Part shown: positions 14,278-55,199 of the stretch, piece after piece | Position numbering within the stretch: position 1 is the stretch's first letter | How the letters are laid out: every line of letters starts with the position of its first letter | Origin: a virus | Reading direction: 5' to 3' (one strand) | DNA length: 64,000 bases | IMG/VR virus record: IMGVR_UViG_3300013131_004463 | Location: 15,231 to 79,230 of that record | Notes under the pieces: generated by a model | Seen by the model: only the letters and a program-made list of their open reading frames with translations | What the model was told of the DNA's origin: nothing | Database searches by the model: none | Position numbers and translations under genes: made by a program

Positions 14278-14284
14278 AAATAAA

Positions 14285-23599: not shown

Positions 23600-24541
23600 T
23601 TATAAACCAATGAAACCAGGAGGTGATGTAGATGGATCGGTTTGTATACTTAATGAAGAGTCAGAATTTAAATCGTATCCATCTTGTCCATATGAAAATT
23701 GTGTTACTTGGTTATTATTCGCAGCAATATTAATATTTGCATTATTTGTAATTTGGGTAGTTAAATTTATATTTAATTTAGCATCATTATCTAATGAATA
23801 ATTAAGGTCTCTTGATGTTTGTGTTAACTTAGAAAAATTAAATTTTAATAAATCTCTACTAGTATTATAGTCCTTAAAACCAATACTTAATGGACCTGTA
23901 GCGATTTGATTAAAGATATTTGTAATCCTTTCTTGATTATATTCGCTCATGGAAAAGTTAAAATTTAAATTAATATTTATTGGATATTTAATAATTACTT
24001 CATCTGGTAAATAATTATTTATCGTATAAACCGGTTCTCGTGATACTTCAATACCTAAATCCAATGATTCTAATCTATTGTTATTTGCTTCATTTAAATT
24101 TAAATCAACATAATAATTATCTGCAGGGATAAAATTATTTAATCTAAACGGCGTATAAGAAAAGGTTCCAGATGTATTACCAAGTTCACCAAGTATTAAA
24201 GCCCTAATATTGACTCGAGGATATTCCCCTAATCTATAATTAATTGAATAATTTGTAAGATAGCCACTCGAAAATGTAAAAAATTTATTCCCATACTCTA
24301 TTTTTCCAGAAAAAGCATCGCCAGTGACATATCCTATTAATGGATCATTTCTAGTTAGAAGATAATCTAAGCTTAAATTTGCAGCGATTGGTTTAGATAT
24401 AAAATAATTTAAATTTCCATCACTTATAGCCAACGATGTTCCTATATTATTATTATATGATACTTGAACATTTTGTATCCCAGAAATAATAGAATTATTT
24501 AGATAAAAATTTTGATTTTCTATAGAATAAACATTAAACAT
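23600..24541 (-). CDS. Tail-tube-like structural protein (possible distant paralogue of 42259..43440)
   Basis: LESLDLGIEVSREPVYTI...YPININL parallels IQSYTLSFDLARTPIEKL...FPLTVTL; GTGTAA motif upstream. Confidence 0.55.
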   Translation of the reverse strand: MFNVYSIENQNFYLNNSIISGIQNVQVSYNNNIGTSLAISDGNLNYFISKPIAANLSLDYLLTRNDPLIGYVTGDAFSGKIEYGNKFFTFSSGYLTNYSINYRLGEYPRVNIRALILGELGNTSGTFSYTPFRLNNFIPADNYYVDLNLNEANNNRLESLDLGIEVSREPVYTINNYLPDEVIIKYPININLNFNFSMSEYNQERITNIFNQIATGPLSIGFKDYNTSRDLLKFNFSKLTQTSRDLNYSLDNDAKLNINLTTQITNNANINIAANNNQVTQFSYGQDGYDLNSDSSLSIQTDPSTSPPGFIGL

Positions 24542-24550
24542 TAAATATAA

Positions 24551-24572
24551 TTACACTTCTTTTTAAGTGTAA
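24551..24572. promoter_or_regulatory. Divergent pair of GTGTAA late motifs (TTACACTT-N6-AAGTGTAA)
   Basis: Inverted repeat between divergent genes 24541(-) and 24594(+). Confidence 0.65.
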
Positions 24573-24593
24573 AATATAAGAGGTAAAAGGTAT

Positions 24594-25133
24594 ATGCCAA
24601 GTATTTACGACACAGTTCCGAATTGGACTACTAGTCCAACTAGTTTTGATAAGTATGCTATCGTCAAGGGTAGCGACAACAGATTTTATTATTCTGTTAT
24701 AAATTCTAATGTTGGCAATAATCCCATCACGATTTCTAATTTACAATCCAGATGGGATGGATATATATCTCTAAACTCAGTTTTATATCCAAATTTTTGG
24801 TGGAAATCTTCTTATGGTATAGATTTTCTTAGTAACCCTAGAATTAAAATAAATCAATTTGGTAATGGTTATCAACAAAGAGTACAAGAATCAATTAATA
24901 ATAATCTGAAACAAATTAACATAAGTTTTGAAAACAGAAGTGAATTAGAGACCGTATCAATTTTACATTTTTTACAACAAAGAAATTCCAAAGAAAGTTT
25001 TGTTTATAATTTACCTACAATTTATTCGAGACCAAGCGTTAAAACTATGTTTACTTGCCCAACATGGGTGGTTCAGCCTGTTTCTTACAATGTTTATACT
25101 ATAAAAGCTGAATTTTCTGAGGTACCAGAATAA
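24594..25133 (+). CDS. Minor tail protein, lambda gpM-like
   Basis: FGNGYQQR...INN, FLQQR, AEFSEV. Confidence 0.8.
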   Translation: MPSIYDTVPNWTTSPTSFDKYAIVKGSDNRFYYSVINSNVGNNPITISNLQSRWDGYISLNSVLYPNFWWKSSYGIDFLSNPRIKINQFGNGYQQRVQESINNNLKQINISFENRSELETVSILHFLQQRNSKESFVYNLPTIYSRPSVKTMFTCPTWVVQPVSYNVYTIKAEFSEVPE

Positions 25134-25134
25134 T

Positions 25135-26511
25135 ATGTCTGTATCCCAAAATCAAACTTATTTATCAATTGTAAGTGGAAGTAGAGATATTAGGGAAAAT
25201 ATTTTATCTTTAAATCCATCTTCATTAATAGAATTATTTGAAATAGATTTTTCTGAAGTTCATCCAATAACGAAAACCTTAAGCTACGGAAATGATCAAC
25301 CTACTAATATGGGGATATTGCGTATTTATAACAATTTTAATTTATTTAAAATGACAAATAATCCATATGGAATAATTAATTGGAGAAATAATTCATATTA
25401 CCCATTTCCTATAAAAGCAGATGGATTTGAATATAATTCATCAACGACATTACCAACCCCAAAGATATCAATATCAAACTCTTCTCCTGATCGTTCAAAT
25501 AATTCTTTCTATAATTATCTTAGAATGCAGTTTCAATCTTTTGACGATATAATTGGGGCAAAATTTACAAGAATTAGAACATTTTTGAAATATCTAAATT
25601 CTTCAAATTTTGACGAAGGATACAATATATATACTACAAATACAGGTATCTACGAAATAGAACTTCCAAAAGATGTCTATTATATAGATAGAAAAACCAT
25701 CGAAAATAGTGCTACGATCGAATATCAACTTAATACAATACTTGATTTAGAAAATTTAGTTTTTCCAGGAAGGACAATATATTCAAAAAAATGTCCATTT
25801 CAATATCGTGGAGAAGGATGCTGTTATGAGTATAATAATAGATTGACTTCATTGCATAGTGGAATTTATGCATATACAATAAATCCCAGTATTAGGGTAT
25901 CAGGTCTTTTAACTGCTCCTCCAGTTGCAACAGAAAATAATCAATTATTTATTGGTGGAATTTTTCCCACAGGACAAATTGGAGCTAGCGCAATACATAG
26001 AATCACTGGATCAAATCAAGGAAACAATGGTCCACTTGGTAATTCTGGAGCTTGGAACATAAATAATACATATATTTCGGGTGATTTTGTTTTTTTAGAA
26101 AATAGAAATTTAAAAAACTATTTTGTTTGCATTAAGAATCATACCTCAAATGCTTTCGATACACCTTTAAATAATAATTATTGGACACCAGATGTTTGCG
26201 CTAAAGATATTCGCTCGTGTAGACTGAGATGGTTAAAAAATCCTGCATTTAGACCAATTATTTGGCCCGAGAATAGAGGTGGAGAAAATTTTAATGCTAC
26301 AGCTTCAAGAATACACTGGACGTATTATAACAATGAAAGTCTTTTTGTCACTGGTGTTACTGGACAAGCAGTAAATTTTCCTAGAAGACCTGGAGCTGAA
26401 AATCCTAGTTCACCCGAAGCGCATGGAATTCCTAAAGATGCAAATGGAAATTATTTAAATGGATTTTTACCATTTGGAGGATTTCCTGGCACAAATAAAC
26501 CAAATGTTTAA
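25135..26511 (+). CDS. Tail tip protein, lambda gpL-like (Fe-S cysteines)
   Basis: LIELFEID, GFE, PTPKISISN, RIRTFLKYL, YYIDRK, CPFQYRGEGC, DVCAK...CRLR, LPFGGFPG. Confidence 0.88.
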   Translation: MSVSQNQTYLSIVSGSRDIRENILSLNPSSLIELFEIDFSEVHPITKTLSYGNDQPTNMGILRIYNNFNLFKMTNNPYGIINWRNNSYYPFPIKADGFEYNSSTTLPTPKISISNSSPDRSNNSFYNYLRMQFQSFDDIIGAKFTRIRTFLKYLNSSNFDEGYNIYTTNTGIYEIELPKDVYYIDRKTIENSATIEYQLNTILDLENLVFPGRTIYSKKCPFQYRGEGCCYEYNNRLTSLHSGIYAYTINPSIRVSGLLTAPPVATENNQLFIGGIFPTGQIGASAIHRITGSNQGNNGPLGNSGAWNINNTYISGDFVFLENRNLKNYFVCIKNHTSNAFDTPLNNNYWTPDVCAKDIRSCRLRWLKNPAFRPIIWPENRGGENFNATASRIHWTYYNNESLFVTGVTGQAVNFPRRPGAENPSSPEAHGIPKDANGNYLNGFLPFGGFPGTNKPNV

Positions 26512-26896
26512 TAAAAAAATTAAAAATTTTATAAAAGAGGAGTGCTTAAAAAATAGCTCAGAAGAGTCTTGTGGTTTTATAGTTTTTAAAAATGATTTCA
26601 TTTGCGTTCCATGTAAGAATATATCTTCTGATCCAACCAATTTTTTTAAAATTTCTTCACTTGATTTTTTAAAAACAAAATATTTATATAATGAAATACA
26701 TTACATATACCATAGTCATATAAGCGAAAATTGCGAATTTTCTGAATTAGATAAAAAATGTTCTGATTTTTTGATGATACCAATCATATTATATAATATT
26801 CAAAAAAATATATTTAAACTTTATAGTTCTACTAATTTAAAAAATTCTAATATAGAAAAAGATTTTGCATGTAATCATTTAGAGGTAAAAATATGA
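26504..26896 (+). CDS. Tail assembly protein, gpK-like JAB/Mov34 domain
   Basis: EESCGFI, YHSH...SELD; located between L and I. Confidence 0.8.
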   Translation: MFNKKIKNFIKEECLKNSSEESCGFIVFKNDFICVPCKNISSDPTNFFKISSLDFLKTKYLYNEIHYIYHSHISENCEFSELDKKCSDFLMIPIILYNIQKNIFKLYSSTNLKNSNIEKDFACNHLEVKI

Positions 26897-27708: not shown

Positions 27709-27711
27709 TTT

Positions 27712-30700
27712 ATGCCAATTAATAAATATGCAGATGGTTTGGCTTATGTACTGTTTCCTGGAAATATTGGATATGGACCTGCTGGATATAATTTTCCAGA
27801 AAGTACGGCTCAAGATGATGGTGGTGGTGTTGGAGCTATATCTTTATCTTTTAGCGGTTCTACTGTACCATATCTTAGTTCTACCGATGTAAGTGGCTGG
27901 GGATATGGACCAAGTGGCTTTTACTCTGCTTATACTCCTCTAGCGACATTAAGTAGTCACACTTATAATCCTTTCACTTCACATCCAACGCTTCCAACTA
28001 GTAGAATATACTCAGGTGTAGATCCTGACACGCCAAATTTAAGATCTATTTTTTCTGTAGATACACGTGCAGCAACTGAGGCTAGTTATGGAGATAGAAA
28101 GAAGCGAACAGCAATAAGCTCTATTTCAGAAATTAATATTTTAGATTTGGTTTGCGAAGGCCCAATTGAAGGTTTTCCTACTGGAAAATATTATTATAGT
28201 TTAAGCGGTAAAACTACTGGAGATATTGGATATACTTCAGCCATCTTTGAGCCTTATGGTTCCACGAATAGCGTACCACAAGCAAGATCCATATTTTGGG
28301 ACGACACACCTTTAGCAGATCAAAATGGTTTTAATAATTTTCAATATTCAAATTATAAATTTTCTTATGGGGAAAAAACTAATGATCACACGATATTTAA
28401 TCCATATTTAAATATTTACGAAGAAAGAAGGAATTATTTTGGAAGACAAGTAGATAATAATAAAATACCACTTCAGACTTCTGTAACTAAGCAAATTAAT
28501 GAAAGAATTTATGGATATTATCTTATAAGTGGTAGTAATAGAATAGTTACTCCAAAAACATATTATATATATAATACAGACGTTTCTTCTATACAAATTA
28601 ATATTAAAATAAACAGTCTATACGAACAAATAGTGAAAGGTAGTAACGCTGGAGATATAGAGCAACAAGAGATGCAGTTTCAATTTATAATCTATAGAGT
28701 TTTAAAAGATTACTCATTAGTGCGATTAGATACCTCAAAATATCCACCTTTTGAATCAGATGCTTGGTCAAGTGATGAGATTACATTAAAAGGTAAAGTC
28801 ACAAGTTCACCTGTAATTTGGACATATCATATTACATTAAGACCATTCGCAGAGAATAGACCAACTTTTAAATTATTTGACGACCAAATTGGCTGGGCGA
28901 TAGACATTATCAAACAAAGCAGAGAAGCTACATCTACCAGTTTAAAAAGTGAGAGCTCTATAGATAGCATAACTGAAGTCTATTCTGATAGATTTGTTTA
29001 TCCAGATTCTGCATTAGTTTTTTCTAAATTTGACGCAAGATATTTCAGCGCAATTCCAACTAGATCTTATCTCTTAAAACTTTTAAAAGTTAAAATTCCT
29101 GTTAATTATGATCCAATAGCAAGAAATTACAATGGTCCTTGGAATGGCAAATTTAAAGTCGCATGGACAGATAATCCAGCTTGGTGTTTTTATGATATTA
29201 TAACAAATAATAGATTTGGATTAGGTAAATATATAGACGAAAAATTAGCAGATAAATGGAATTTATATGAAATAAGCCAATATTGCGATCAATTGGTAAG
29301 CGACGGGGTTGGCGGACTAGAACCAAGATTTACATGCAATGTTATGTTTAATACAAAAGAAGAGGCGTATAAAGTTTTAAATGATATGGCCAGTTTATTT
29401 CTAGGAATACTTTATTATTCTGCTGGTCAAATCTTTTTATCACAAGATTCACCAAGAGATTCAGTTTATTTATTTAGTAATAGCAATGTAATCGCCCCTG
29501 GATTCTCTTATTCTGATGCTTCAAAAAAATCAAGAAAAACAGTAGCTATAGTAAGATATAATGATGAAAATGATAATTATAAACCCGCGATAGAGGTAGT
29601 TGAAGATGTAAGTGCGATGCTTAAACTTGGAGTCAGAGAAACAGAAATTACATCCTTTGGTTGTACCAATAGAAATCAAGCAAGAAGAGCGGGCAAATGG
29701 CTTCTTGCTACTCAAAATTCAAACACAGAAATTGTAGAATTTCAAGCTGGTTTAGAGGGAAGTCTGATACGACCTGGAGATGTTATATCTATTTATGATC
29801 AAGCAAGAAAAAATTTAAGTTATGCAGGTAGAACATTAGAATTAACAACTGGATATGCGGTATTAGATTTACCATATGATTCTATAAATACATATGCTCT
29901 AACTGGAGTTAATGCAAATAATTCATTTATATTTGATGTTATAACCCCAACTTATAACCTAGATTTCGGAACAGATCTAGGTGATCTTTATGCTACGGGT
30001 TATAGCTCTGTAAACTCTTCTGGAGTTAGTGGTTTAAATAGTTCATTTTTCAAAAGAAGTCAAATACAATCTATTAGAATTAATAATCCAAGAAATTTTA
30101 TAACTAGCGGATCTGGTATATACACCAACAACATAAGGTTAAATTTTAGTTCTTCTTTAGGTAATTTAACTAGTGGATATATATTACCTCAAAGTGCACC
30201 TTGGATTATAAACATAGATACTACTGGATATTTGGCCGCAGGTATTAATACAAAATCTAATATCAATAATGATGCTCAAAATCTTTATCCAGGATACTAT
30301 CTAGAATCTTACTTAAATAAACCTCAAAAATATAAAGTTTTAAATATTACAGAAAATGACAACGCTTTATTTACAATTAGCGCCTTAGAATATAATGATA
30401 AAAAATTTAAAGATATAGATAATATTGGACAACTTGTAAATACACCAATAAGACCGGCTTCGCCTACTACTCCTAATTTAATACTTAGTACAATATTTAG
30501 GGATAAAAATGGTTGTTATTACACACCATATCTTAATGATTATGCAACATATGGATGTGGCTCACCAGTATACGGAGACTTACCTTATTCTACAAATCAA
30601 AATGGTATTAACAGTATAATGTATAACATAATTCCACCAGCAAATTCTTCGAATACAATTTATTATACATATGTTAAAACTGGGACAAATTTTGATTCAA

Positions 30701-30951
30701 CTACTCCATTAGAATCTTTTGTGAGTGCAATTTCGAGCGAAAATTTACAAACAGGAATATCACATAATAATATATTAAACGCTCCGATATTTCCTCCTTT
30801 TATAACTCCACTTCGTACTGGTTCTTATTTTTTCAGAGTATTTGCACAAAATAGTATAGGCGAAAGATCTTCTGCTGCTACAGGATTATTAATTCTTAGG
30901 AATCAGATAAAAGCTGCAGATGTAGAGGCTTCAGGAATTAATGTATATTAA
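27712..30951 (+). CDS. Central tail tip / host specificity protein, lambda gpJ-like
   Basis: LDLVCEGPIEG, KVKIPVNYDP, WTDNPAWCFYD, EPRFTCN, GCT..QARR, RPGDVI. Confidence 0.9.
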   Translation: MPINKYADGLAYVLFPGNIGYGPAGYNFPESTAQDDGGGVGAISLSFSGSTVPYLSSTDVSGWGYGPSGFYSAYTPLATLSSHTYNPFTSHPTLPTSRIYSGVDPDTPNLRSIFSVDTRAATEASYGDRKKRTAISSISEINILDLVCEGPIEGFPTGKYYYSLSGKTTGDIGYTSAIFEPYGSTNSVPQARSIFWDDTPLADQNGFNNFQYSNYKFSYGEKTNDHTIFNPYLNIYEERRNYFGRQVDNNKIPLQTSVTKQINERIYGYYLISGSNRIVTPKTYYIYNTDVSSIQINIKINSLYEQIVKGSNAGDIEQQEMQFQFIIYRVLKDYSLVRLDTSKYPPFESDAWSSDEITLKGKVTSSPVIWTYHITLRPFAENRPTFKLFDDQIGWAIDIIKQSREATSTSLKSESSIDSITEVYSDRFVYPDSALVFSKFDARYFSAIPTRSYLLKLLKVKIPVNYDPIARNYNGPWNGKFKVAWTDNPAWCFYDIITNNRFGLGKYIDEKLADKWNLYEISQYCDQLVSDGVGGLEPRFTCNVMFNTKEEAYKVLNDMASLFLGILYYSAGQIFLSQDSPRDSVYLFSNSNVIAPGFSYSDASKKSRKTVAIVRYNDENDNYKPAIEVVEDVSAMLKLGVRETEITSFGCTNRNQARRAGKWLLATQNSNTEIVEFQAGLEGSLIRPGDVISIYDQARKNLSYAGRTLELTTGYAVLDLPYDSINTYALTGVNANNSFIFDVITPTYNLDFGTDLGDLYATGYSSVNSSGVSGLNSSFFKRSQIQSIRINNPRNFITSGSGIYTNNIRLNFSSSLGNLTSGYILPQSAPWIINIDTTGYLAAGINTKSNINNDAQNLYPGYYLESYLNKPQKYKVLNITENDNALFTISALEYNDKKFKDIDNIGQLVNTPIRPASPTTPNLILSTIFRDKNGCYYTPYLNDYATYGCGSPVYGDLPYSTNQNGINSIMYNIIPPANSSNTIYYTYVKTGTNFDSTTPLESFVSAISSENLQTGISHNNILNAPIFPPFITPLRTGSYFFRVFAQNSIGERSSAATGLLILRNQIKAADVEASGINVY

Positions 30952-30953
30952 TT

Positions 30954-42238: not shown

Positions 42239-42258
42239 TAATTTTATTTAATTATTTA

Positions 42259-43440
42259 TTAGAACTGACCGTTAATAAATAATCCATTAGTTGTATCTTG
42301 AGGACCACCAACTTGAGTACTAAATGTTAATGTAACAGTTTTGTTAGCGCCAATATCAGAACTAAATTCTTGACTATCTAATCTAGAGCCTTTAAGCTTA
42401 AATTTAGCCATAGTCAAGGTAGAGTCTGTTGGACTTTTGATTGTTATTGATGGCTCATAAGTTGTAGAATCATTTGCAACTATATTTGCAAGACTTCCGG
42501 TTACCATATCTGTTACTTGAGCGTCTACGCTTAATGTAACAGTTAATGGGAAGTCAATCTCTCTAGAGAATGCAAACTTATTTCCAAGTTTTTCAATTGG
42601 AGTACGAGCAAGATCAAAGCTTAATGTATAGCTTTGAATGTTAATAGCATTAACATCTGCGCCACCAGCAGTAGTATTACTTAAACTTAATGTAATATCA
42701 CCTGGACGAAGAGCGCTAATAGTATTTCCATTTGAAATTCCAACATTTTGTAAAGCTTGTGGAAGCTGATAATAGTTAGTAAGGGGTAGTCCATTAATTG
42801 GGTTAACTGCTGGTACAAAATTACCACTTGATGCTGCCCCGTCTGTGCCAATACCAGTTTGGAAATTCATATTTAATCCTTCAACATTAATTGTAGTTGT
42901 TGGGAAATTACCAACAGAAGCTTCTGTTGAATAAGAGGTTATGAATGCATTTCCAATTCCAATAACACCATTATTTGGATTTGTATTATCTGTATTACCT
43001 ACTGCATCTGTTCCTTCTGGAGTTGTGCGGATAAAATAATTTCTTTCATCACTTGTTTTATTTAAGAATCCAGAGATTGCAGAAATGTTAGAATCTGTAC
43101 CGCCAGAAACAATTGTGAATCCAAGAATATTTTCATTCGCAAGACTAGCATTAATATAGCTAAAATCAAGAGCAACAGTTGGATTTGTTAGAATTACGCG
43201 ATCAATTGCTGCGAGTTGACCGAATTGATTTACGTCTGTGCGATCAACAGTAAAACTATAATTTGCAGTTTGAATTCTTTGAAGTTGTTTGACTAAGTTA
43301 CCGCTAATGCGCGCCCAATTATTACCAGCAACAGCGTCATTTGTTCTTGCTCCGTTTGCGTCTTGAAAGTGAAAACCTGTTGCTGGTGCTGGGCCAGCGT
43401 AAAGAGCTTCTGATTGATAAATTATTCTATTTCTAGGCAT
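42259..43440 (-). CDS. Major tail tube protein
   Basis: Strong GGAG RBS, own terminator, beta-rich composition, upstream of chaperones and TMP. Confidence 0.75.
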   Translation of the reverse strand: MPRNRIIYQSEALYAGPAPATGFHFQDANGARTNDAVAGNNWARISGNLVKQLQRIQTANYSFTVDRTDVNQFGQLAAIDRVILTNPTVALDFSYINASLANENILGFTIVSGGTDSNISAISGFLNKTSDERNYFIRTTPEGTDAVGNTDNTNPNNGVIGIGNAFITSYSTEASVGNFPTTTINVEGLNMNFQTGIGTDGAASSGNFVPAVNPINGLPLTNYYQLPQALQNVGISNGNTISALRPGDITLSLSNTTAGGADVNAINIQSYTLSFDLARTPIEKLGNKFAFSREIDFPLTVTLSVDAQVTDMVTGSLANIVANDSTTYEPSITIKSPTDSTLTMAKFKLKGSRLDSQEFSSDIGANKTVTLTFSTQVGGPQDTTNGLFINGQF

Positions 43441-43493
43441 ATTAAATTCTCCATTTATCTTTATTACACCTTATTTTTAGGTTTTTCCTTTTT

Positions 43494-44357: not shown

Positions 44358-44358
44358 T

Positions 44359-45377: not shown

Positions 45378-45379
45378 TT

Positions 45380-45889: not shown

Positions 45890-45920
45890 ACCTTAAATTA
45901 CACTTTAAATTATTGTAAAT

Positions 45921-46787
45921 TTAAAGCAAAGTTGATAATATTTCTTCTGTATTAAATGCTTCTGCTATATTATAATTACACTGATGAGGCAATCCAACAA
46001 ACTCTTTTTCAAGTATAATCCCATCTATGTTATGAGTGAAAACTTTAGCTTGATCTTTGGCTAATATATTAGAATGTATATTATAACCAAGTCTGTCTGG
46101 ACGAGTGCCTATCCAACAAACAGTAGATGGAAGCATTAACGCAGCTGCGGCATGTTGAGCAAAAGAATCTATAAATAATCTTTTTTGACTTAAACCTATC
46201 AAACAAAACATGTCTCTCCAATTTGCATTAACTTTTTCTGTATTTTCAAATGATATCTGATCATCCCTAGCAATATGAAATATATGATATTTATCTTTTA
46301 ATCTACTCACTAAATTATTAACTAAAAATTCTGGAAGATCTCTTGCCCAACTATAATTATTTCCTTCTCCACCGCCATTAGTTTGTAGAAGTAGAATTGG
46401 TTTTTCTCTTTTGAACTTCTTTATATTTTCATAAATTTCTGGATAGTTTAAGAATAATCTTGGATTTTCTCCACTATATTTTAGTCCAAACATGCCACAC
46501 CAAGCTTCAATTAAATGTTTATTTTCAACTACATATTCATTGCTTTGATATACTTCATTGCCTAAAAATATAGTATCTTTATCTTTTATAAAATCTTCAT
46601 GAAAATATTGAACAGTGTTTGATCTGTATACTCTATGCACAAATGGATTATTAAGAAACGCCTCTGGATAAGGACAAATTATTATTAATTTTCTATCTGG
46701 ATAATTTTTATTTATATTTTCAGCAACTGCAGTTGCAGCTATATGTTTACCAATTCCACCTTGAAGAAAAAATACTACAGTTTTCAA
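45921..46787 (-). CDS. GT9-like glycosyltransferase
   Basis: GGIGKHI, NNPFV, ARDLP, FIDSFAQHAAAAL..PSTVCW. Confidence 0.75.
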   Translation of the reverse strand: MKTVVFFLQGGIGKHIAATAVAENINKNYPDRKLIIICPYPEAFLNNPFVHRVYRSNTVQYFHEDFIKDKDTIFLGNEVYQSNEYVVENKHLIEAWCGMFGLKYSGENPRLFLNYPEIYENIKKFKREKPILLLQTNGGGEGNNYSWARDLPEFLVNNLVSRLKDKYHIFHIARDDQISFENTEKVNANWRDMFCLIGLSQKRLFIDSFAQHAAAALMLPSTVCWIGTRPDRLGYNIHSNILAKDQAKVFTHNIDGIILEKEFVGLPHQCNYNIAEAFNTEEILSTLL

Positions 46788-46788
46788 T

Positions 46789-47535
46789 TTATGCTAATAA
46801 AATTTCATTTGCGAATGAAGAATGACCATTATCTCCATTTCTTTCGGTTTGAAAACTAACATCAATTCCATAACAATTAATATTAGGATATATTGTTGAT
46901 AAATATTCATCTACTGGACCGATTATAGTTGATTCTGATAATTTTTTAGCAATTTCTCCTTTTATTATGTAAGCTTGTAAATATAATGCTGCATTTATTT
47001 TATATATATTCTGTGAGTGAGAACGTATCTTAAAATCAGTTGGTTCAAAACTTAAAAAGTTATTTTTATTACCCCAGCCAAGTAAAAATATATCAAAATT
47101 TAGCTTATTTTTAATATTTTCTAAATCATTAAATAATTCGTTTAGTCTCAGGAAGAAGGTAACATCGTCTTCCATAATTAATGAATATTCATAATTTTGC
47201 GCTAATTTCCAAGCTTTTCTATGACTTTGCGCCACGCAAGCTTCTGAGATAGATATATTAACTAAATCTTTTTCATAATCATAAGATTTAAGCTTCATTA
47301 ACTCACTTTGACTAGTAGTTGTGCAGAAATATTCTTTTTGTATTAAATTAAGAAGATTAGCATTCTTGACTTTATCTTGATCAACGTATTCTTTACCGTC
47401 TTTATTAATAGATATAAAATCTTTATAGTCAATAGCTGGGACTCTTTCAAATTCAACTTCGTGAAAATTTAAAAGCCCAGTACTATGAATTAGTCTATCT
47501 TGTCTTCTATCAAGATTAATAACAAAAGTTTTCAT
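46789..47535 (-). CDS. GT25 family glycosyltransferase
   Basis: FVINLDRRQDR, RVPAID, CVAQSHRKAW, IMEDD, AYII, PVDE. Confidence 0.88.
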   Translation of the reverse strand: MKTFVINLDRRQDRLIHSTGLLNFHEVEFERVPAIDYKDFISINKDGKEYVDQDKVKNANLLNLIQKEYFCTTTSQSELMKLKSYDYEKDLVNISISEACVAQSHRKAWKLAQNYEYSLIMEDDVTFFLRLNELFNDLENIKNKLNFDIFLLGWGNKNNFLSFEPTDFKIRSHSQNIYKINAALYLQAYIIKGEIAKKLSESTIIGPVDEYLSTIYPNINCYGIDVSFQTERNGDNGHSSFANEILLA

Positions 47536-47536
47536 A

Positions 47537-47557
47537 TATTATATATTATATATTATA
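47537..47557. repeat. Tandem (TATTATA)x3, read as stacked TATAAT boxes on the minus strand
   Basis: Directly upstream of the GT25 start; TTGATA at 47567-47572 (minus). Confidence 0.7.
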
Positions 47558-47585
47558 TATATTTTATATCAAAATTATTTTATAA

Positions 47586-48329
47586 TTAAATTATTAATCT
47601 ACTTTTTACTGGATCTGAAGAGTGGGCGTTATCTATTAAATCATTTTCAGTTTGTAGAGAGGCATACATTCCATAACAATTTATATTTTCATATAGCGCC
47701 GCCACATGTTCATCTACTGGACCAATAATAGTAGATTCATAAAGTTTTTTAGCCATATCTTTGGTTACTATATATGCATGCAAGCATAATGCATAATTAA
47801 TTTTTTGTATGAGATATGAAGTATTAATATTTTCTAAAAAAAACATATTCGTTGCATATCCAATAGCCCAGCCTAATAAAAATATATCAAAATTAACATT
47901 AAACTCATTTTCTATATGGTTTAATAAAGGTGGAATTCTTTGAGTAAATGTAATATCATCTTCTAATATCAAAGAGTAATCATAATTCATGGCTTCTTTC
48001 CAAACTTTCTTATGACTTTTAGCAACACAAACTTCTGATAATGTCATCTTTAAAAGATCATTTTCTTTATCATAATGTTTTAATTGTAACAATTCATCTT
48101 GGCCTCTATGCAAGCAAACATATTCTGTTTGGATCTTTTCTAGTAAATCTGTTTTATTTATTTTTTGATAATCTATATATTCTTGATTATTTTCATCTAT
48201 AGAAATAAAATCTTTATAATCTATTCCTGATATTTTTTCAAAAGATGGAATACCATGAAATTCAAGATGTTTTTTCATATACTCAAGCCTATCTTGTCTT
48301 CTGTCTAAATTAATAACAAAAGTTTTCAT
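47586..48329 (-). CDS. GT25 family glycosyltransferase (tandem paralogue)
   Basis: Same motifs; identical N-terminus MKTFVINLDRRQDRL. Confidence 0.88.
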   Translation of the reverse strand: MKTFVINLDRRQDRLEYMKKHLEFHGIPSFEKISGIDYKDFISIDENNQEYIDYQKINKTDLLEKIQTEYVCLHRGQDELLQLKHYDKENDLLKMTLSEVCVAKSHKKVWKEAMNYDYSLILEDDITFTQRIPPLLNHIENEFNVNFDIFLLGWAIGYATNMFFLENINTSYLIQKINYALCLHAYIVTKDMAKKLYESTIIGPVDEHVAALYENINCYGMYASLQTENDLIDNAHSSDPVKSRLII

Positions 48330-48338
48330 ATTTTATAT

Positions 48339-51300
48339 TTATATAGCAGTATTCCCATATATTATGTATCCGTTATCTCCGCTATGCAATAATGAGATTG
48401 TTGCATATTGACCTGCGGTTCTAAATTGATTATTATAACTATTTAGAGTTACTCCTGCTGAACCAGTAATTTGAACTTGACCTGCTCCAATTTGTATAAT
48501 TGATGTATTAAATCCAGTAGGATTTCCAAAACTTATTGTGCCAGTTAACATTGATCCAGAGTTTGCAAGAACAATTCTACTATTATATCCTGTGCCAATT
48601 GAAAAATTTGTATTTGCATTTAATATATTTGATGTAGCATTAATTAAATTACTATCACAAAAATCAACTCTTCCAGGAAGTGGAGATGGAGATAAAGTTA
48701 TATTACTGCCTGTTAAAAATATTCCACCATTAAAATCTAACGATAAAGAGCAAGCGCCTCTTGATGCTTTACCTCTTGATCCGCCATCACCAATTACTGT
48801 CGCTCCAATGTGAGAAACAAAATTTTGTCTTCCTCCAAGAACTGATGCGAAACAAGAAGTTATTTTATTACTATATCCACCAAAAATTGAACTATATTCC
48901 GTTGCAGTAGTGCAATTTAAAAAATTGCCAGTAATGATATTAAAACCTCCACCTGCTATAAATCCTGCATTAGCGCCTCTTGTCTTTATACCTACAAGAT
49001 TAGAATGCCCACCAATTATAGAACTACAATTTCCATTTATTTTATTATCGCAACCTCCTAGTGCAACTGAAGAGTCTCCATTATCTAATCTATTCCTATT
49101 TCCACCAATTATAGAAGCAAAGAGTACGCCAACAGAACTAGCTCCACTATTACAAATACCGCCCAATATTACTGTAGAACAATAAGAGCTAAGATTATTA
49201 CAAAATCCTCCTATTATACTATTATGAGCTTGAAAACATATTGAGTTGTTTGAACCACCTAATATAGAATTATTATTTGCACATGTAAAACCGGGAAGGG
49301 AATGAGTTATACAATTACGTAATCCGCCACCAATAAAATTATTAAATACAGTACATCCTGGTCCTATAAAATTACAAATTCCTCCAGCAATAACATTATT
49401 TAAATTAGAAGCATTAAATATATTAGGAAAAGAGCTTCCTACAGAACCAATTATATTATCTCTTCCACCGCCAATAGTATTCAGATTTCCTTGTATTATA
49501 TTGGAACATCCACCACCAATAGTAGATCTTACTCCCGTTATAAGATTACAAACTCCTCCACCAATTGCTGAATGATTTCCAGAAATTGAATTTGTTTCTC
49601 CGCCTGGCATAGATGGATATAATGAAGCATTAAAAGATTGATCTTTCCCAAAAATACCACTGCCTCCACTAGTTAAAAAACTAACAGTAAGAGAACCTAC
49701 TAAATTTGTATTATCGTAAATATTTAGAAGACCAGAAGCATTGATATTAATATTTGCGCCAGTTAATGTCAAATCGCGAAGAATACCAAAATTTGTTGCT
49801 TGAGAACCAATGATTAAATTATTATTTTGCCAACCAAACAATCCAAATTCGCCAGAATTAGTGCCAGTTGCATTAAATATTCTTAAACTTTGAGGACTCG
49901 TTCCGCTATAGATATCTATACCAGATGTAAAAGTTTTTGCGCCATTTATAGTTTGATTGGTTGTTGTATTAACATATAATGCTGGAGTTACTCCTACTCC
50001 ACTAATGTAAAGTCCAATTCCGTTCCCTAATGCTCCAACCATTGGACTATTAATAGATACCTTATCTTGATCGATCGTAATAGATGGGAAACTTGTAGCA
50101 GTTCCAAATACTAAGCCACTTTTATATATATTAATTGTTCTACTAATATTTGTAAATGGATTAAAATTTAAATTACCAAATATATTAACATTCCCTCCAT
50201 AGATTTCATTTGCTTGAGTTCCTCCATACAAATTAACACTTCCTCCGTCACTTAGTCCGCTTCCACCTACTATATTTATGTTTCCTCCATAACCCACACC
50301 AAATGTTGGTGTAAATATATTATCTCTAGTAACTAGCTCAAGCCCTACTCGTGGATTAAGTAAGGCACCATTTCCAGATATACTACTAATTCCTTTTCTT
50401 CCAACTATAGTTTGAATTCCTGTTATATATACAATATCGTATAATGAATAATCTACGTATCCGCTAAGTGAGTTAATTTTATTATTTAAAAAAATTCCAG
50501 TTGAATTAAGCTCTCCACTTAAAACAACTCCTGTCCCATTTACATTGGGACGATTTGTTAAACTAATCGTGCCATTTACTATTGAAACATCTGCTCCAGA
50601 AATAGAAAGAGTATCAACGTTATTTAAATCAATCGCATTAAAAACTCCAGTTCCAGAAACACCTATATTATTAACAAAAGTTTTATTACCCGAGATAATT
50701 TGATTACCAAATGTTAAAACTGATACTCCGCTAAGAGCGTTAATCTTATTATCTAACGTGCTACCAGTCGAAGCGAGATTTGTTATAGTGGCGTAAGAAC
50801 TTAAATTTACTCCAGTTAAAACAGAATTGCCGCTAAGTAAAATATTTCCTGTTACATTTAAATTTCCAACTATATTTGTAGGATCAAATATATTTAAAAC
50901 ACCAGAAGCATTGATATTAATATTTGCGCCAGTTAATGTCAAATCGCGAAGAATACCAAAATTTGTTGCTTGAGAACCAATGATTAAATTATTATTTTGC
51001 CAACCAAACAGCCCGAATTCTCCAGAGTTAGTGCCAGTTGCATTAAATATTCTTAAACTTTGAGGATTTGTTCCGCTATAGATATCTATACTAGATGTAA
51101 AAGTTTTAAGACCACCTATAGTTTGATTGGTTGTTGTATTAACATATAACGCTGGAGTTACTGGTACGCCACCAATAATTAAACCAAATGGTGGAAATCC
51201 GGGAAGTATTTCATTTAATGAAATGTTATCATTATCAATAACTAAACCAGGCATCGTTCCCACTTGCCCCCCCCAGCCCGCGGCGGAGCCTGTTTTATAA

Positions 51301-52025
51301 ATAAGAAGATTATGTTGGGAGACAGTTGGAAAACCAGGATGCGTATATTTATTAATCCTTATATTTCCATATAAATTTATATCTCCATCGAATTGCGGTC
51401 CACCAGCGTATAAAGTAATACCTCCATAATCTGAATTTCCAAGTACTGTTCCTGTACCTGCTGTTAAAATTATATTACCACCAGGAGCTACTGCGCTCGG
51501 CGCTCCAATTATATTATCATTTGCTGCTATTAAATTTAAACTATGTGGTTGTGAGCCTTGGAGTCCTGAAATTATTCTTACACCTAATACTCTATAATCA
51601 TCAAATGTTTTATCACCATAGATTGTTTGATTACCAAATGTTAAAACTGATACTCCGCTAAGAGCGTTTATCTTGCTGTCTAGCGTACTACCAGTCGAAG
51701 CAAGATTGGTTATCGTGGCGTAAGAACTAAGATCTACACCTGTAAGAACTGGATTTCCAGATATATATATCGAACCTCCACCACTAATATAAATATTACT
51801 ATTTATTAAATTTATATCTGTGCCAGAGAATTGAAATTCACTAATATTACTTAAATCAACAGCATTAAATATTCCAGTGCCTTGAACTTCTACATTATTA
51901 ATAAAAGTTTTGTTTCCAGAAATAGTTTGATTTCCAGTATTATATACAAGATTTGGAGCAATTACTTCGTGAGAAAAAATCCCTGTTCTGCCTACAAGCG
52001 TTTTTGCTTTAAATATATTTGCCAC
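48339..52025 (-). CDS. Long fibre-like virion protein with internal repeats and Gly/Cys-rich beta-helix
   Basis: NQTIxGxKTF repeats, GGxCN repeats, C-terminal QIGAGQV...AGQYA domain. Confidence 0.75.
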   Translation of the reverse strand: MANIFKAKTLVGRTGIFSHEVIAPNLVYNTGNQTISGNKTFINNVEVQGTGIFNAVDLSNISEFQFSGTDINLINSNIYISGGGSIYISGNPVLTGVDLSSYATITNLASTGSTLDSKINALSGVSVLTFGNQTIYGDKTFDDYRVLGVRIISGLQGSQPHSLNLIAANDNIIGAPSAVAPGGNIILTAGTGTVLGNSDYGGITLYAGGPQFDGDINLYGNIRINKYTHPGFPTVSQHNLLIYKTGSAAGWGGQVGTMPGLVIDNDNISLNEILPGFPPFGLIIGGVPVTPALYVNTTTNQTIGGLKTFTSSIDIYSGTNPQSLRIFNATGTNSGEFGLFGWQNNNLIIGSQATNFGILRDLTLTGANININASGVLNIFDPTNIVGNLNVTGNILLSGNSVLTGVNLSSYATITNLASTGSTLDNKINALSGVSVLTFGNQIISGNKTFVNNIGVSGTGVFNAIDLNNVDTLSISGADVSIVNGTISLTNRPNVNGTGVVLSGELNSTGIFLNNKINSLSGYVDYSLYDIVYITGIQTIVGRKGISSISGNGALLNPRVGLELVTRDNIFTPTFGVGYGGNINIVGGSGLSDGGSVNLYGGTQANEIYGGNVNIFGNLNFNPFTNISRTINIYKSGLVFGTATSFPSITIDQDKVSINSPMVGALGNGIGLYISGVGVTPALYVNTTTNQTINGAKTFTSGIDIYSGTSPQSLRIFNATGTNSGEFGLFGWQNNNLIIGSQATNFGILRDLTLTGANININASGLLNIYDNTNLVGSLTVSFLTSGGSGIFGKDQSFNASLYPSMPGGETNSISGNHSAIGGGVCNLITGVRSTIGGGCSNIIQGNLNTIGGGRDNIIGSVGSSFPNIFNASNLNNVIAGGICNFIGPGCTVFNNFIGGGLRNCITHSLPGFTCANNNSILGGSNNSICFQAHNSIIGGFCNNLSSYCSTVILGGICNSGASSVGVLFASIIGGNRNRLDNGDSSVALGGCDNKINGNCSSIIGGHSNLVGIKTRGANAGFIAGGGFNIITGNFLNCTTATEYSSIFGGYSNKITSCFASVLGGRQNFVSHIGATVIGDGGSRGKASRGACSLSLDFNGGIFLTGSNITLSPSPLPGRVDFCDSNLINATSNILNANTNFSIGTGYNSRIVLANSGSMLTGTISFGNPTGFNTSIIQIGAGQVQITGSAGVTLNSYNNQFRTAGQYATISLLHSGDNGYIIYGNTAI
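49731..51162. repeat. Direct repeat pair of about 260 bp (49731-49992 and 50901-51162)
   Basis: First 110 bp identical; offset 1170 bp. Confidence 0.9.
50701..51745. repeat. Direct repeat pair of about 115 bp (from 50701 and from 51628)
   Basis: Encodes LSSYATITNLASTGSTLDxKINALSGVSVLTFGNQ twice; offset 927 bp. Confidence 0.85.
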
Positions 52026-52132
52026 TTTTTATCCTTTTTATTAGCTTGCGCTAAATTGCTGCTTTTTATAGCAGACTAAAGAACAAAAGAATTTGTAATT
52101 CTAATATTCTAATCAGAATTACACTTTAATTT

Positions 52133-52744
52133 TTATTGAGTGCTAGCAAAAGTATGTATATATACAGGAGATTCTGTGATATTATCAGAAAGAACACCCG
52201 TGTATCCATCTGATCCAATAGATCTAATACTAAGATTATACATAATTTCGCCTGGGACTTCTAATGTTGCTTGAACCTTCGGAGTGCCTACAAAAGCAAC
52301 TGGATACATAATTGCATATGCATCAAGGTTTAATGGAGTAAGCTCTTTTGTAAATACTTGATTACTAGATTTTGCAACAAATTGTGCATTTGCCCAACCG
52401 CTATAATTAGTATTATAAGTAGCGAGATTATCTGTTAAATATTGAAAATATCCACTATTTCCTACTAGTTTAATTTCGCCAAGATTTGAGTCTACTTGAA
52501 TTGTTATTCCATTGTCGCCAGTAACATAAACATTGCCTTGTAGATTATTTATAGAATTTACATCTGCTGTAGCGGTATTAATTAATCCTTGTAGATAACC
52601 ACTAATTCCAGTAAGTTCGCTATAGTAAGCAAGACCGCTATTTCCAAATCCAAGACGCAAAGCTGAACTTCCATCGTATGCAACTCCTGGGACTGGAGTT
52701 AAGTTATATCCGCTAAGTCGGAGGTGTTTAAAAGCGCTTATCAT
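52133..52744 (-). CDS. Virion structural protein (fibre-associated)
   Basis: VNSINNLQGNV motif, SGY repeats, late motif upstream. Confidence 0.6.
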   Translation of the reverse strand: MISAFKHLRLSGYNLTPVPGVAYDGSSALRLGFGNSGLAYYSELTGISGYLQGLINTATADVNSINNLQGNVYVTGDNGITIQVDSNLGEIKLVGNSGYFQYLTDNLATYNTNYSGWANAQFVAKSSNQVFTKELTPLNLDAYAIMYPVAFVGTPKVQATLEVPGEIMYNLSIRSIGSDGYTGVLSDNITESPVYIHTFASTQ

Positions 52745-52781
52745 AGTTTTTTATTTACTTTCACTAGATTACACATATTTT

Positions 52782-53321
52782 TTATTTTTTTATTTGAACA
52801 TTTAAATAATATCCGTTATTTAATAAAATATCACTAAAGTTTATATAGAACCCATTAGAATTGATTGCTCCTATCGTAAAATAGTAAGCCATATCGTCTA
52901 CTATATTTTGAAAAGCGCATACCACAGATTTTGGAGCAGAAGATAATGTTTGGGGAAAACTAATATAATAGTTATCAGATCCTTGAGTTAAATTAGCGGT
53001 ATATCCAAGTATATTTTCACTTTCAAAATAACCACTTAATGGAGCAGCATCTATAGTAATTGATTTATAAGGATTTTGAGAACTATTTGTTGATATTTTA
53101 ATCCCAGTTTCAGCAATAAATTTTAATGTTTCTATGCCAGTTGGTATTAAATCTGGTTGATTATTAACTTTGAAGGTTTTAAATTGATTGACTGGGCCTT
53201 CTGGTCCTTGTGGGCCTTGTGGTCCTGGTATAAAAATATTTGCATCCCCTTGAAAACTTGGAGAAGTTACATCCGTAGTTATTGCATTTGGCAAAATTAC
53301 ATCTACAATTAAATCTGCCAT
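52782..53321 (-). CDS. Virion protein with short collagen-like repeat
   Basis: GPQGPQGPEGP. Confidence 0.65.
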   Translation of the reverse strand: MADLIVDVILPNAITTDVTSPSFQGDANIFIPGPQGPQGPEGPVNQFKTFKVNNQPDLIPTGIETLKFIAETGIKISTNSSQNPYKSITIDAAPLSGYFESENILGYTANLTQGSDNYYISFPQTLSSAPKSVVCAFQNIVDDMAYYFTIGAINSNGFYINFSDILLNNGYYLNVQIKK

Positions 53322-53325
53322 AAAA

Positions 53326-53700
53326 TTAAAAAGATGTTACTTCTGGACTTACAATAAACTTTCCTCTAATCAACTTTATAGAATTACCAGTTGGTATTCC
53401 ATAAGGAAATCGCTCTATATCATAAACAAAAGTTCCTACTGGAATACTTGCAGTTGTATAAGAATCTACGTTTATATCTACTATTCCAGATGGATAGTAT
53501 GAACCATTATTGCCAGAGATAATAGTTGGATTTAGATTAACTAAAATTTGTTGATCTCCTGTGTATCCATAAGCATATTTTACAACTCCTCTAACATCAT
53601 ATCCACTTAAATTTATTGAATTATTATTAGAATCTTTTACTCTTAAAGAAAGCTGTAAATGGTCGCCTTGAATTGTGTTTATATTATATGTAGTGGACAT
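53326..53700 (-). CDS. BppU N-terminal-like fibre attachment protein
   Basis: QGD...INLSGY...GTFVYDIE...GKFIVSPEVT pattern. Confidence 0.6.
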   Translation of the reverse strand: MSTTYNINTIQGDHLQLSLRVKDSNNNSINLSGYDVRGVVKYAYGYTGDQQILVNLNPTIISGNNGSYYPSGIVDINVDSYTTASIPVGTFVYDIERFPYGIPTGNSIKLIRGKFIVSPEVTSF

Positions 53701-53732
53701 ATAATAAATTACACCAATTAAAAATTAATAAT

Positions 53733-55199
53733 TTAAGGAATATTTAATTTAACGCCGTTAACCTTGACTGTTCCGTATAGGTTTATTTCATTAGCAGAAA
53801 TTTTTATACCTAAACCACTAACAGTACCATTTCCACTTTGAAAATTGAAACCAACAAATATTGAATCTTTTGAACCTGTTATTCTATTATTATAACCAAA
53901 AACAAAAGACTTATTATTTAAAATAAATTCATTATCTCTCCCTATCAACAAAGATTCCGTATTACCAGCTAATTTATTACTATTACCTAAAGTGACTGTA
54001 TCATAATTATTAGTTCCTCTAATAAGATTTCCTGCGTAATAATTAGAATTTCCAGCAGAGAATTGTAGAATACCTGTTAAATATGCATGATTATTAGATA
54101 ATTCTGACCTAAGTGAGCCATCTGAAGAATTCCCATTGCCAAATATAAAATTATTATTTGCACCAGATACAACATTGTTATTACCGAAAATAGCATTTTC
54201 ATCGCCTGAACTTAAACTATTAATGCTACCAAATACGGAATTATTTGAACTTAAAATTGTATTTGAGTTGCCATATATTATATTGTTTGAAGATTTTTGT
54301 AAGCTATTTATTCCTCCAAATACATAGTTCAAATAACTGCCTGTACTAAAATTTAGTTTACCTATTACAATATCAGAATTAGCAGATTCAAAGATATTAC
54401 TGTCTCCTATCGAATAAATATTGAAGCTTTTATTGATGTCGTTGCTAAAACCAATTACATAAGTATTTCCACCCTGTGTTTGAAAAAAGTTATTTCCATT
54501 TCCATAGCAGGAAATTCCAGAACTTTGAGTAAATTGATTATAATTACCAACTAAAGTTACTTCGCCTGCACCTTCAAATAAACTATTATTATCCCCAATA
54601 ACAGCAACTTTATAATTCTCATATCCACTAAAAGTACTACCTAAGACTCCTGGAGCAGATAAAAGTCCTTCTACATTATTTTTTGCGTATAAATAATTAT
54701 TTTTTCCTAAAACAGTTGATTCAGAAAATCCAGATAATTGATTATAAGTTCCTATTACAGAAGAGTAAGCACTCTGAGTTGCGTAATTATACGTGCCAAT
54801 CATATACATTCTTTGCGTGCGATTAAAATCGTTAAAATGACCAATAGCTACATTACCTACGCCAGAAAGAAGAAGGTTAGAGCTTCCTAATGCTATTTCT
54901 GGGCCCCAAGCAAACTTTCTTATAATCTCTGGACTCCAAGTTAAATTGTAAGTTCCAATATTAATTGCTGGACCATCAACAGTTTGACAATTTCCTATAA
55001 TAACTGGACAGGCAATAATTCTATCATTTTTGAATATAGGTATTCTTAAACCACTAAAAAAAGTTCGGTCACCATATATAGGACTATTAAGGTCGCCAGT
55101 AGTAAACTCAAAGCTAATTCCAGTCAGGTTTTGCTCAACGAAAGATTTGGTTGTTGAATCGTAAAACTGAGTATATAGAGGTTTATTTATTGGTGTCAC
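53733..55199 (-). CDS. Beta-helical (YadA-head-like) fibre/spike protein
   Basis: Many repeats of about 14 aa with hGxxN pattern; C-terminal NLYGTVKVNG. Confidence 0.65.
   Translation of the reverse strand: MTPINKPLYTQFYDSTTKSFVEQNLTGISFEFTTGDLNSPIYGDRTFFSGLRIPIFKNDRIIACPVIIGNCQTVDGPAINIGTYNLTWSPEIIRKFAWGPEIALGSSNLLLSGVGNVAIGHFNDFNRTQRMYMIGTYNYATQSAYSSVIGTYNQLSGFSESTVLGKNNYLYAKNNVEGLLSAPGVLGSTFSGYENYKVAVIGDNNSLFEGAGEVTLVGNYNQFTQSSGISCYGNGNNFFQTQGGNTYVIGFSNDINKSFNIYSIGDSNIFESANSDIVIGKLNFSTGSYLNYVFGGINSLQKSSNNIIYGNSNTILSSNNSVFGSINSLSSGDENAIFGNNNVVSGANNNFIFGNGNSSDGSLRSELSNNHAYLTGILQFSAGNSNYYAGNLIRGTNNYDTVTLGNSNKLAGNTESLLIGRDNEFILNNKSFVFGYNNRITGSKDSIFVGFNFQSGNGTVSGLGIKISANEINLYGTVKVNGVKLNIP

Follow-up and report, generated by a model that had tools for sequence, protein, structure and literature searches.

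In a virus genome fragment of 64,000 bases (the window, which is the whole stretch of DNA analysed, bases 15231-79230 of the linear IMG/VR virus record IMGVR_UViG_3300013131_004463), serine or threonine directly before glycine ([ST]G) occurs 1.5- to 2.8-fold more often than composition predicts in the shaft of a tail fibre, in the outer domains of the tail-tip proteins gpJ and gpL, and in a collar protein. The raw contrast between these proteins and others is mostly a matter of amino-acid composition, and this excess is the real residue left after correction. The reading preferred here, held with evenly balanced confidence, is that the excess is a structural turn or cap motif of outward-facing modules, multiplied by module duplication. 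No glycan is needed to explain it, and sugar attachment is possible. The record has 79,230 bases and a CheckV completeness of approximately 53%; the guanine plus cytosine (GC) content of the window is approximately 29%. The virus encoded here is a siphovirus whose tail tip is of lambda type (gpM, gpL, gpK, gpI and gpJ), and its minus-strand late block contains, in order, portal, capsid, fibre module, two genes of glycosyltransferase (GT) family 25, neck genes and tube. The proteins and domains concerned, and three controls, are located in the window as follows (lengths in amino acids, aa).

48339-52025, minus strand: side tail fibre, 1228 aa, with a modular shaft, a YadA/UspA1-like beta-roll head and a C-terminal domain, according to Pfam and PDB matches
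49626-52025, minus strand: [ST]G-rich fibre shaft, aa 1-800, 44 [ST]G against 21.9 expected (p=2e-4)
48786-49658, minus strand: Gly-rich, [ST]G-depleted fibre head, aa ~790-1080, aligning to UspA1 head repeats (3pr7, E=3.6e-7)
52133-52744, minus strand: short fibre protein, 203 aa, 8 [ST]G against 3.7 expected, all invariant in 13 homologues
52782-53321, minus strand: 179-aa protein in which a short stretch, GPQGPQGPEGP, is collagen-like, 3 [ST]G against 2.0 expected
53326-53700, minus strand: Ig-like beta-sandwich protein, 124 aa, probable fibre collar (AlphaFold2 model with a predicted local distance difference test score, pLDDT, of 84.9; Foldseek match to the T5/DT57C tail tip)
53733-55199, minus strand: beta-roll fibre protein, 488 aa (Pfam LbR_Ice_bind, E=1.6e-10), 14 [ST]G against 10.6 expected
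27712-30951, plus strand: gpJ-like central tip protein, 1079 aa (phrog_31, E=7e-137)
25135-26511, plus strand: gpL-like protein, 458 aa (Phage_tail_L, E=5e-27)
55707-56777, minus strand: major capsid protein, a control that is not enriched, 3 [ST]G against 4.4 expected; its Phage_capsid_4 match is weak
42259-43440, minus strand: probable tail tube protein, a control, 7 [ST]G against 6.9 expected, its function being suggested by its position upstream of the tape measure protein (TMP)
32370-39815, minus strand: TMP, 2481 aa, a control, 30 [ST]G against 32.2 expected

The expected number of [ST]G was computed from each protein's own composition, and p-values were obtained by shuffling. An earlier note on this DNA had counted the dipeptides by eye; its counts were exact for the 1228-aa fibre (55), the 203-aa protein (8), the 124-aa protein (5) and DnaE (7), and the TMP has 30 rather than the approximately 29 given. 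The peptides that it quoted were located at aa 761 of gpJ, aa 405 of gpL and aa 44 of the 203-aa protein. The contrast that it drew between the fibre and DnaE disappears after correction for composition: the observed/expected ratio (O/E) of DnaE is 1.80, above the 1.51 of the fibre (55 against 36.3 expected, p=0.0008), and DnaE is therefore invalid as a contrast. Raw dipeptide counts are thus misleading in proteins rich in Gly, Ser and Thr. The corrected ratios are 2.16 for the 203-aa protein (p=0.018) and 2.26 for the 124-aa protein (p=0.04). Enrichment had also been claimed for other virion proteins; it holds for gpJ (1.64, p=0.007) and gpL (1.93, p=0.02), is absent from the tube (1.01), and reaches only p=0.06 in both the "tube-like" open reading frame (ORF) at 23600 (1.98) and the neck protein (2.20). 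The other controls score 0.68 (capsid) and 0.93 (TMP).

When proteins were pooled, all virion proteins together (146 against 106.0 expected; 1.38) did not differ significantly from the non-structural proteins (47 against 37.5; 1.25). By group, the O/E was 1.55 for the fibre module, 1.73 for gpJ plus gpL, 0.94 for capsid, portal, tube and neck, 0.93 for the TMP and 1.26 for the non-structural proteins. The fibre module and gpJ/gpL taken together reach 117 against 73.5 (1.59), and all remaining proteins reach 100 against 94 (1.06), a grouping made after the data had been seen. Correction for composition thus removes the enrichment from tube, capsid, portal, neck and TMP and leaves it in the shaft, the outer domains of gpJ and gpL, and the collar protein. 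The high-copy surface proteins, capsid and tube, are not enriched, which does not agree with the coating of the virion proposed in the earlier note.

Within the fibre, the excess belongs to the shaft, and it is still present when shuffling is confined to blocks of 100 aa. The Gly-richest part of the protein, the head at aa 801-1100, has 4 [ST]G against 10.3 expected; it matches the trimeric adhesin heads of the YadA/UspA1 type, namely UspA1, and yet is depleted. The shaft modules include six copies of the BppL_N motif (Pfam E=2.4e-12) and three units of the type TGSxLDxKINxLSG. Eight of the 55 fibre sites lie inside two internal duplications that were read by eye, self-BLAST giving no off-diagonal matches. 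A similar restriction to domains was observed in the tail tip. The C-terminal domain of gpJ (aa 713-1079, nt 29848-30948) contains 14 [ST]G against 5.0 expected, and its core 1 against 3.9; the lineage-specific C-terminal extension of gpL (aa 233-458, nt 25831-26508) contains 8 against 2.9, and its core 2 against 1.9.

The sites have hydrophobic flanks, with I/L/V at position -1 and V/Y/I at +1. The best-defined form is hydrophobic-[ST]-G, and [VILFY][ST]G scores 2.66-3.11. The analogy with proteoglycans made earlier does not apply, since Ser-Gly xylosylation sites have acidic flanks. The longer pattern [ST]G.T shows no enrichment in the fibre module of the window (0.44), although it reaches 2.46 in the fibres of related phages. 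Where [ST]G is in excess, Asn or Asp before Gly ([ND]G) is in deficit: 0.52 in the window fibre module, and 0.38 for NG and 0.50 for DG in the window fibre. The sum [NDST]G in the module is at expectation (109 against 100.9), so that Ser/Thr replace Asn/Asp there and no sites are added. A cause at the DNA level (a T in the third codon position followed by GG) was considered and rejected; NG, DG and other X-Gly pairs with T-ending codons are not enriched.

The same bias was found across the lineage, with a ratio of 1.9 over 66 relatives' fibres. Related IMG/VR contigs were collected through the capsid protein (378) and gpJ (more than 578). In 65 fibre-like proteins of these relatives, 2864 [ST]G were observed against 1454 expected (1.97). 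The O/E is 2.06 for TG and 1.77 for SG and at most 1.14 for all other X-Gly pairs, and approximately 43% of the glycines are preceded by Ser or Thr. The bias is directional, with [ST]G at 1.92 against 1.01 for G[ST]. In the relatives' fibres [ND]G is 0.69, and the sum [NDST]G is 1.39. Pooled ratios are 2.59 for the collar protein, 2.48 for the 203-aa protein, 0.70 for the capsid (72 homologues) and 0.52 for the portal. The domain restriction is repeated as well: among 52 gpJ homologues the C-terminal domain scores 2.63 (780 against 297) and the core 0.57 (127 against 223), and among 47 gpL homologues the extension scores 1.98 and the core 0.98. In a distant clade (contigs L158-L164), the gpJ homologue of 1700-1975 aa has an O/E of 0.90-1.13 with [ND]G above 1, and the ORF following gpJ scores 1.5-2.45. 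One of the L158-L164 records is a provirus according to the IMG/VR classification.

Outside the lineage, comparators were chosen as phages without virion GTs. The gpJ proteins of lambda, Burkholderia phage SBP9, Acinetobacter phage Acba_16, Vibrio phage pVa-1 and the T1-like tunus score 0.84-1.26 (C-terminal parts 0.74-1.24). In gp34-37 of T4, a phage with a GC content of 35%, [ST]G is 0.88-1.31, with NG at 1.36 and DG at 1.38, which is the opposite preference. T5 pb1 scores 0.75, and small T5 ORFs have no [ST]G excess. The absence of an excess from counterparts in phages without virion GTs, on which the earlier note had made its proposal depend, was thus confirmed, and because of it the excess is not generic to fibres or to AT-rich phages. 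A tblastn search of 50,697 cultured phage records with the tube protein, the window fibre and a relative's repeat-rich fibre gave no usable relatives, and therefore no cultured comparator with the same modules. No GT-free relatives were found inside the lineage, where nearly all large contigs have GT1/GT2 matches. Tested by composition correction and by these counterparts, the idea of glycosylation survives both only in a narrowed form and is partly supported.

The sites occupy fixed positions in repeats. The main repeat has the consensus S/T-G-S-x-L-D-x-K-I-N-x-L-S-G. In 164 distinct units of this type, Thr is found at -4 in 156 and Ser at +8 in 162, with Gly nearly invariant; TG and SG therefore each have a fixed place of their own and are not interchangeable forms of a single [ST]G. 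Helix-capping rules are well established, and by these rules the repeat looks like an N-cap box (S-x-x-D) followed by a Gly C-cap. In the BppL_N-like unit, Y-T-T-G-N-Q-T-I-S-G-x-K-T-F, TG is present in approximately 70% of 141 units (Thr in 99, Gly in 134) and SG in 64% (90 of 141), the Gly of SG being invariant. The commonest spacings between sites are 12 and 6 residues. A unit of this kind forms the BppL_N joint of the receptor-binding protein of the lactococcal phage TP901-1 (PF18338; 3da0), and the sequence ...TGNQTISGxKTF... yields both TG and SG here. TP901-1 has BppL_N as a single N-terminal shoulder, whereas in this lineage it is a repeated joint between modules of fibres of 1000-2400 aa, with six copies in the window fibre and 141 in the relatives.

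A solved structure with the same motif is available for the beta-roll fibre protein. The 488-aa protein aligns (E=1.6e-6) to 3ult, the Lolium perenne ice-binding beta-roll (LbR_Ice_bind), whose repeats include NTISG, NTVRSG, NTVISG and NSVSG and in which each heptad ends in hydrophobic-Ser/Thr-Gly (ISG, VSG or VTG), the motif enriched here. In contrast to 3ult and UspA1, the proteins of this lineage are phage fibres and not plant or bacterial surface proteins, and most of the sites lie in shaft modules without a solved relative. The confident model of the 124-aa protein places its five sites, without exception, in loops next to secondary-structure elements, three of them directly before a strand or helix. 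Among 60 sequences of this family, Gly is retained in 56-59 at three of the five sites, and Ser/Thr exchanges with Asp/Asn. The same exchange was observed at 31 conserved [ST]G columns from 14 families: 48% of the non-Ser/Thr residues are Asp/Asn, against 24% at 266 control Ser/Thr columns, and Asp alone makes up 21% of the replacements, against 4% at the controls. In the C-terminal domain of gpJ, homologues of 27-65% identity retain 69-78% of the window sites; for other classes of dipeptide the range is 16-55%.

The 124-aa protein also indicates what the long fibres may be. Its model shares the fold of the tail-tip chain of approximately 140 aa in T5/DT57C, which is probably the collar protein p132, and it is encoded among long fibre genes. 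The Foldseek probability is 1.00 against 8hqz_Q/T and 7qg9_J/L, with a template modelling (TM) score of 0.64-0.70. Because of this match of the predicted structure, the long proteins encoded next to it would best be read as side tail fibres on the collar. In comparison with T5/DT57C, with its collar and L-shaped side fibres, the module here lies between capsid and neck genes, and T5 pb1 is without an excess. In relatives, the 203-aa protein has extra TGSxL...LSG repeats between the N- and C-terminal domains. Some relatives (the fibres of L070 and L075) have the N-terminus of the 179-aa protein (MADLIVDV..., then the GPQGP stretch) at the start of their long fibre, with a longer collagen run in which Ser/Thr are abundant (GPSGATGPSG). 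GPQGPQGPEGP, the only collagen-like stretch in the window, contains neither Ser nor Thr, and BclA-type Thr-Gly glycosylation, which takes Ser/Thr at the Y position of G-X-Y repeats, finds no site in it.

What was observed directly is the register, the restriction to domains, the way in which the sites are conserved, and homology to a solved beta-roll that has this turn; for the fibre shaft, the sequences suggest a geometry of caps or turns. The modules concerned would be the side-fibre shafts and the beta-roll fibre, together with the collar protein of T5 type and the gpJ and gpL outer domains. In these, hydrophobic-[Ser/Thr]-Gly-hydrophobic may mark the end of a beta-strand or of a short helix, with Gly in a turn conformation and the Ser/Thr hydroxyl making the hydrogen bonds of the turn or cap, for which the fibres of other phages would use Asn/Asp. 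Duplication and shuffling of TGSxLDxKINxLSG, YTTGNQTISGxKTF and beta-roll heptads would then multiply the dipeptide. The structural reading is favoured by the fixed register, by the Asp/Asn replacements, by positional conservation and by the stronger conservation of Gly than of Ser/Thr. The lack of enrichment in the high-copy surface proteins and in the fibre head, the most distal and Gly-richest part, points the same way, as does the higher [ST]G of relatives with lectin-like ORFs and no adjoining GT. Should the motif have a structural role alone, it would be useful for describing a large and so far unstudied family of fibres in abundant uncultured phages, whose modules are BppL_N joints, capped helical units and beta-rolls.

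Several points weigh against a purely structural account. The excess is still 1.73 after masking of the two main repeat families, and the sites span 1961 different hexapeptide contexts. No similarity to the fibre modules was detected in the gpJ and gpL extensions or in the collar protein; the earlier claim that unrelated proteins had gained the sites convergently applies to these at most and fails for the proteins of the fibre module, which share repeat modules. The model of the 203-aa protein is poor, with a pLDDT of 60 in its N-terminal half. The long fibres of T4 and T5, the C-termini of lambda-type J proteins and the T5 ORF of approximately 134 aa next to the tube-like gene use NG/DG, and fold alone leaves the lineage's preference for Ser/Thr over Asn/Asp before Gly in outward domains unexplained. 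Finally, a structural role is compatible with the same sites serving as glycan acceptors.

The candidate enzymes for such a role are numerous. In the 79-kb record, at least 9 GT ORFs pass the Pfam cut-offs (two GT1, three GT25, and GT17, GT11, GT10 and GT9), and a weak GT2-like ORF is present in addition, so that the earlier statement of at least six GTs and a sugar pathway was correct and too low. GT1, GT17, GT25, GT11 and GT10 ORFs lie upstream of the window, together with a fusion of haloacid dehalogenase (HAD) and nucleotidyltransferase domains. The relevant features inside the window are the following.

1-8332, plus strand: nucleotide-sugar pathway, with Pfam matches for two 4,6-dehydratases, a reductase, a C-methyltransferase, a DegT aminotransferase, an epimerase and the GT2-like ORF
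46789-48329, minus strand: two tandem GT25 genes directly downstream of the fibre gene (PF01755, E=4e-12 and 2e-16)
19025-22113, plus strand: a 640-aa GT4-like protein (PF00534, E=3e-7) and a 383-aa GT9 C-lobe protein (PF01075, 25.8 bits, above cut-off)
45921-46787, minus strand: 288-aa conserved protein without a Pfam match or a significant PDB profile match

The GT25 pair begins 9 nt past the fibre gene. A homologue in the post-fibre position was found in none of 80 relatives' loci; this slot is occupied there by concanavalin-like lectin ORFs or, in the two closest relatives (L002 and L017), by a sulfotransferase. Fibres with lectin-like ORFs and no GT next door have a median [ST]G ratio of 1.98, against 1.51 for the window fibre. 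The sulfotransferase ORFs (Sulfotransfer_3, E ~1e-18) are located at L017:17113-17946 and L002:19528-20337. In L059, L070, L074, L022 and L042, runs of 2-5 small concanavalin-like (Laminin_G_3) ORFs follow the fibre gene and may be exchangeable receptor-binding tips.

Homologues of the GT4-like/GT9-like pair are present in 11 of 12 large relatives and also in the distant clade L158-L164. The only PDB match of the 383-aa protein is a weak one to WaaF (1psw, E=0.22), with none to TibC or AAH. The label of GT9-like that had been considered for the 288-aa protein was not confirmed by Pfam or PDB profile searches. This protein adjoins the neck genes in the window and has a homologue in 8 of 80 relatives' loci; in four relatives (L036, L056, L070 and L075) the homologue lies 5-8 kb upstream of the capsid gene, and the protein is therefore not tied to the fibre. 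The N-terminal sequence, VVFFLQGGIGKHIAATAV, looks like the start of a GT-B protein of Rossmann type, a fold that the searches did not confirm. Just upstream of the window (13801-15177 of the record), the HAD phosphatase is fused to a sugar-1-phosphate nucleotidyltransferase in a protein of 458 aa. Its neighbours are a GDP-mannose 4,6-dehydratase and the ORFs of GT10 and GT11 type (fucosyltransferase family), a setting that suggests a phage-made GDP-deoxyhexose or GDP-heptose glycan. No ThyA homologue, TET enzyme or C5-methyltransferase was found in the record (approximately 53% complete) or in five near-complete relatives, and DNA glycosylation is therefore a less obvious use of the GTs.

Two known systems of protein glycosylation may be compared. 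TibC, an enzyme of GT9 type, heptosylates Ser-313 in the sequence ...QNSGG... of the TibA beta-helix and accepts Ser only, not Thr (PMC4358343). In the bacterial autotransporter heptosyltransferases (TibC and AAH, acting on TibA and AIDA-I), a GT9-type enzyme thus acts on a Ser in a beta-helix turn, and the present lineage keeps a GT9-like C-lobe protein. However, TG is enriched here as much as SG, which departs from a Ser-only acceptor. No similarity to TibC was detected, and the phage enzyme, encoded amid replication genes, is split and has a GT4-like protein as its fusion partner. A heptose pathway was not identified, no search having been aimed at GmhA or HldE, and only the HAD-nucleotidyltransferase fusion was seen. 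Glycosylation of virion proteins is established for the mycobacteriophages Che8, Corndog and Myrna (PMC12363180). In the accounts of the work of Freeman et al. 2023 given in PMC12363180 and PMC12582341, the GTs of these phages are located near structural genes, as is the GT25 pair here, the reported targets are capsid and tail tube, and no sequon of the [ST]G kind is cited. Capsid and tube in the window have no excess of the motif, which argues against their being coated at [ST]G sites and is silent on glycosylation at other residues.

On this basis the hydrophobic-[Ser/Thr]-Gly turns may be acceptors for soluble phage GTs (the GT25 pair, the GT4-like/GT9-like pair and others), with the sugars added in the cytoplasm while the virion is being assembled and a structural motif guiding the enzymes, by analogy with autotransporter heptosylation. 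We consider this doubtful. The size of the GT set and the nucleotide-sugar pathway, the position of the GT25 pair and of the sulfotransferase in the same slot of L002 and L017, and the precedents of TibC and of the mycobacteriophages are in its favour. So are the absence of DNA-modification signature enzymes, the choice of Ser/Thr over Asn/Asp before Gly, and an excess that is directional, confined to outward domains, lineage-wide and absent from T4-, T5- and lambda-type counterparts. However, protein as a substrate is putative for every GT discussed here, and the GT9-like protein lacks a TibC/AAH match in the PDB search. The relatives without the GT25 pair have fibres richer in [ST]G, and the distant clade has the conserved GT pair together with an unenriched gpJ. 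Moreover, Asp/Asn replacements are common at conserved sites, Thr-only and Ser-only repeat positions suggest packing constraints, and capsid, tube and distal fibre head are not enriched. The wider picture, in which a lake siphovirus lineage would sugar-coat its host-recognition apparatus by motif-directed O-glycosylation, leave the capsid bare and carry the switch from Asn/Asp to Ser/Thr as a genomic footprint, is rather unlikely. If the sites are glycan acceptors, they would constitute the first trace of fibre glycosylation to be read from sequence in phages whose hosts are probably Gram-negative, and would give a role to the unusually large GT sets of these phages; they would also be a genome-readable marker of glycosylated virions, with a bearing on host recognition and on evasion of immunity and grazers.

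Two further explanations have less probability than either the structural or the acceptor one. Of all dipeptides, Asn-Gly and Asp-Gly deamidate and form isoaspartate most readily, and selection for durability could have replaced them in the exposed turns of long-lived particles by stable Ser/Thr-Gly while the hydrogen bond of the turn was kept. The depletion of [ND]G exactly where [ST]G is enriched, in the window fibre module and in the relatives' fibres, agrees with this, as do the combined [ST]G and [ND]G at expectation in the module and the exchange of Ser/Thr with Asp/Asn at site columns. We nevertheless regard it as improbable: enteric phages at 37 C keep NG/DG in their fibres, as T4 does, the fibre head and capsid are equally extracellular and show no shift, and the summed [NDST]G in the relatives indicates more than replacement. 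Composition and chance alone, in fibres rich in Gly, Ser and Thr with an AT bias, would fit the lack of a significant difference between pooled virion and non-structural proteins, the high ratio of DnaE, and most single-protein p-values, which would fail correction for 56 tests. This explanation is contradicted by the lineage data and is very improbable. The large counts in 65 fibres and in the two parts of gpJ, and the shaft excess that withstands block shuffling, speak against it; the asymmetry between [ST]G and G[ST] is impossible from composition, and T4, with a GC content also low, is without the bias.

Two other proteins of the late block may be mentioned. A 427-aa protein near its lysis/packaging end (61965-63248, minus strand) contains BspA-type leucine-rich repeats (LRR_5, E=3.8e-56). 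A 229-aa protein (60266-60955, minus strand) has a pesticin-type lysozyme domain (E=6e-9) and is a probable endolysin.

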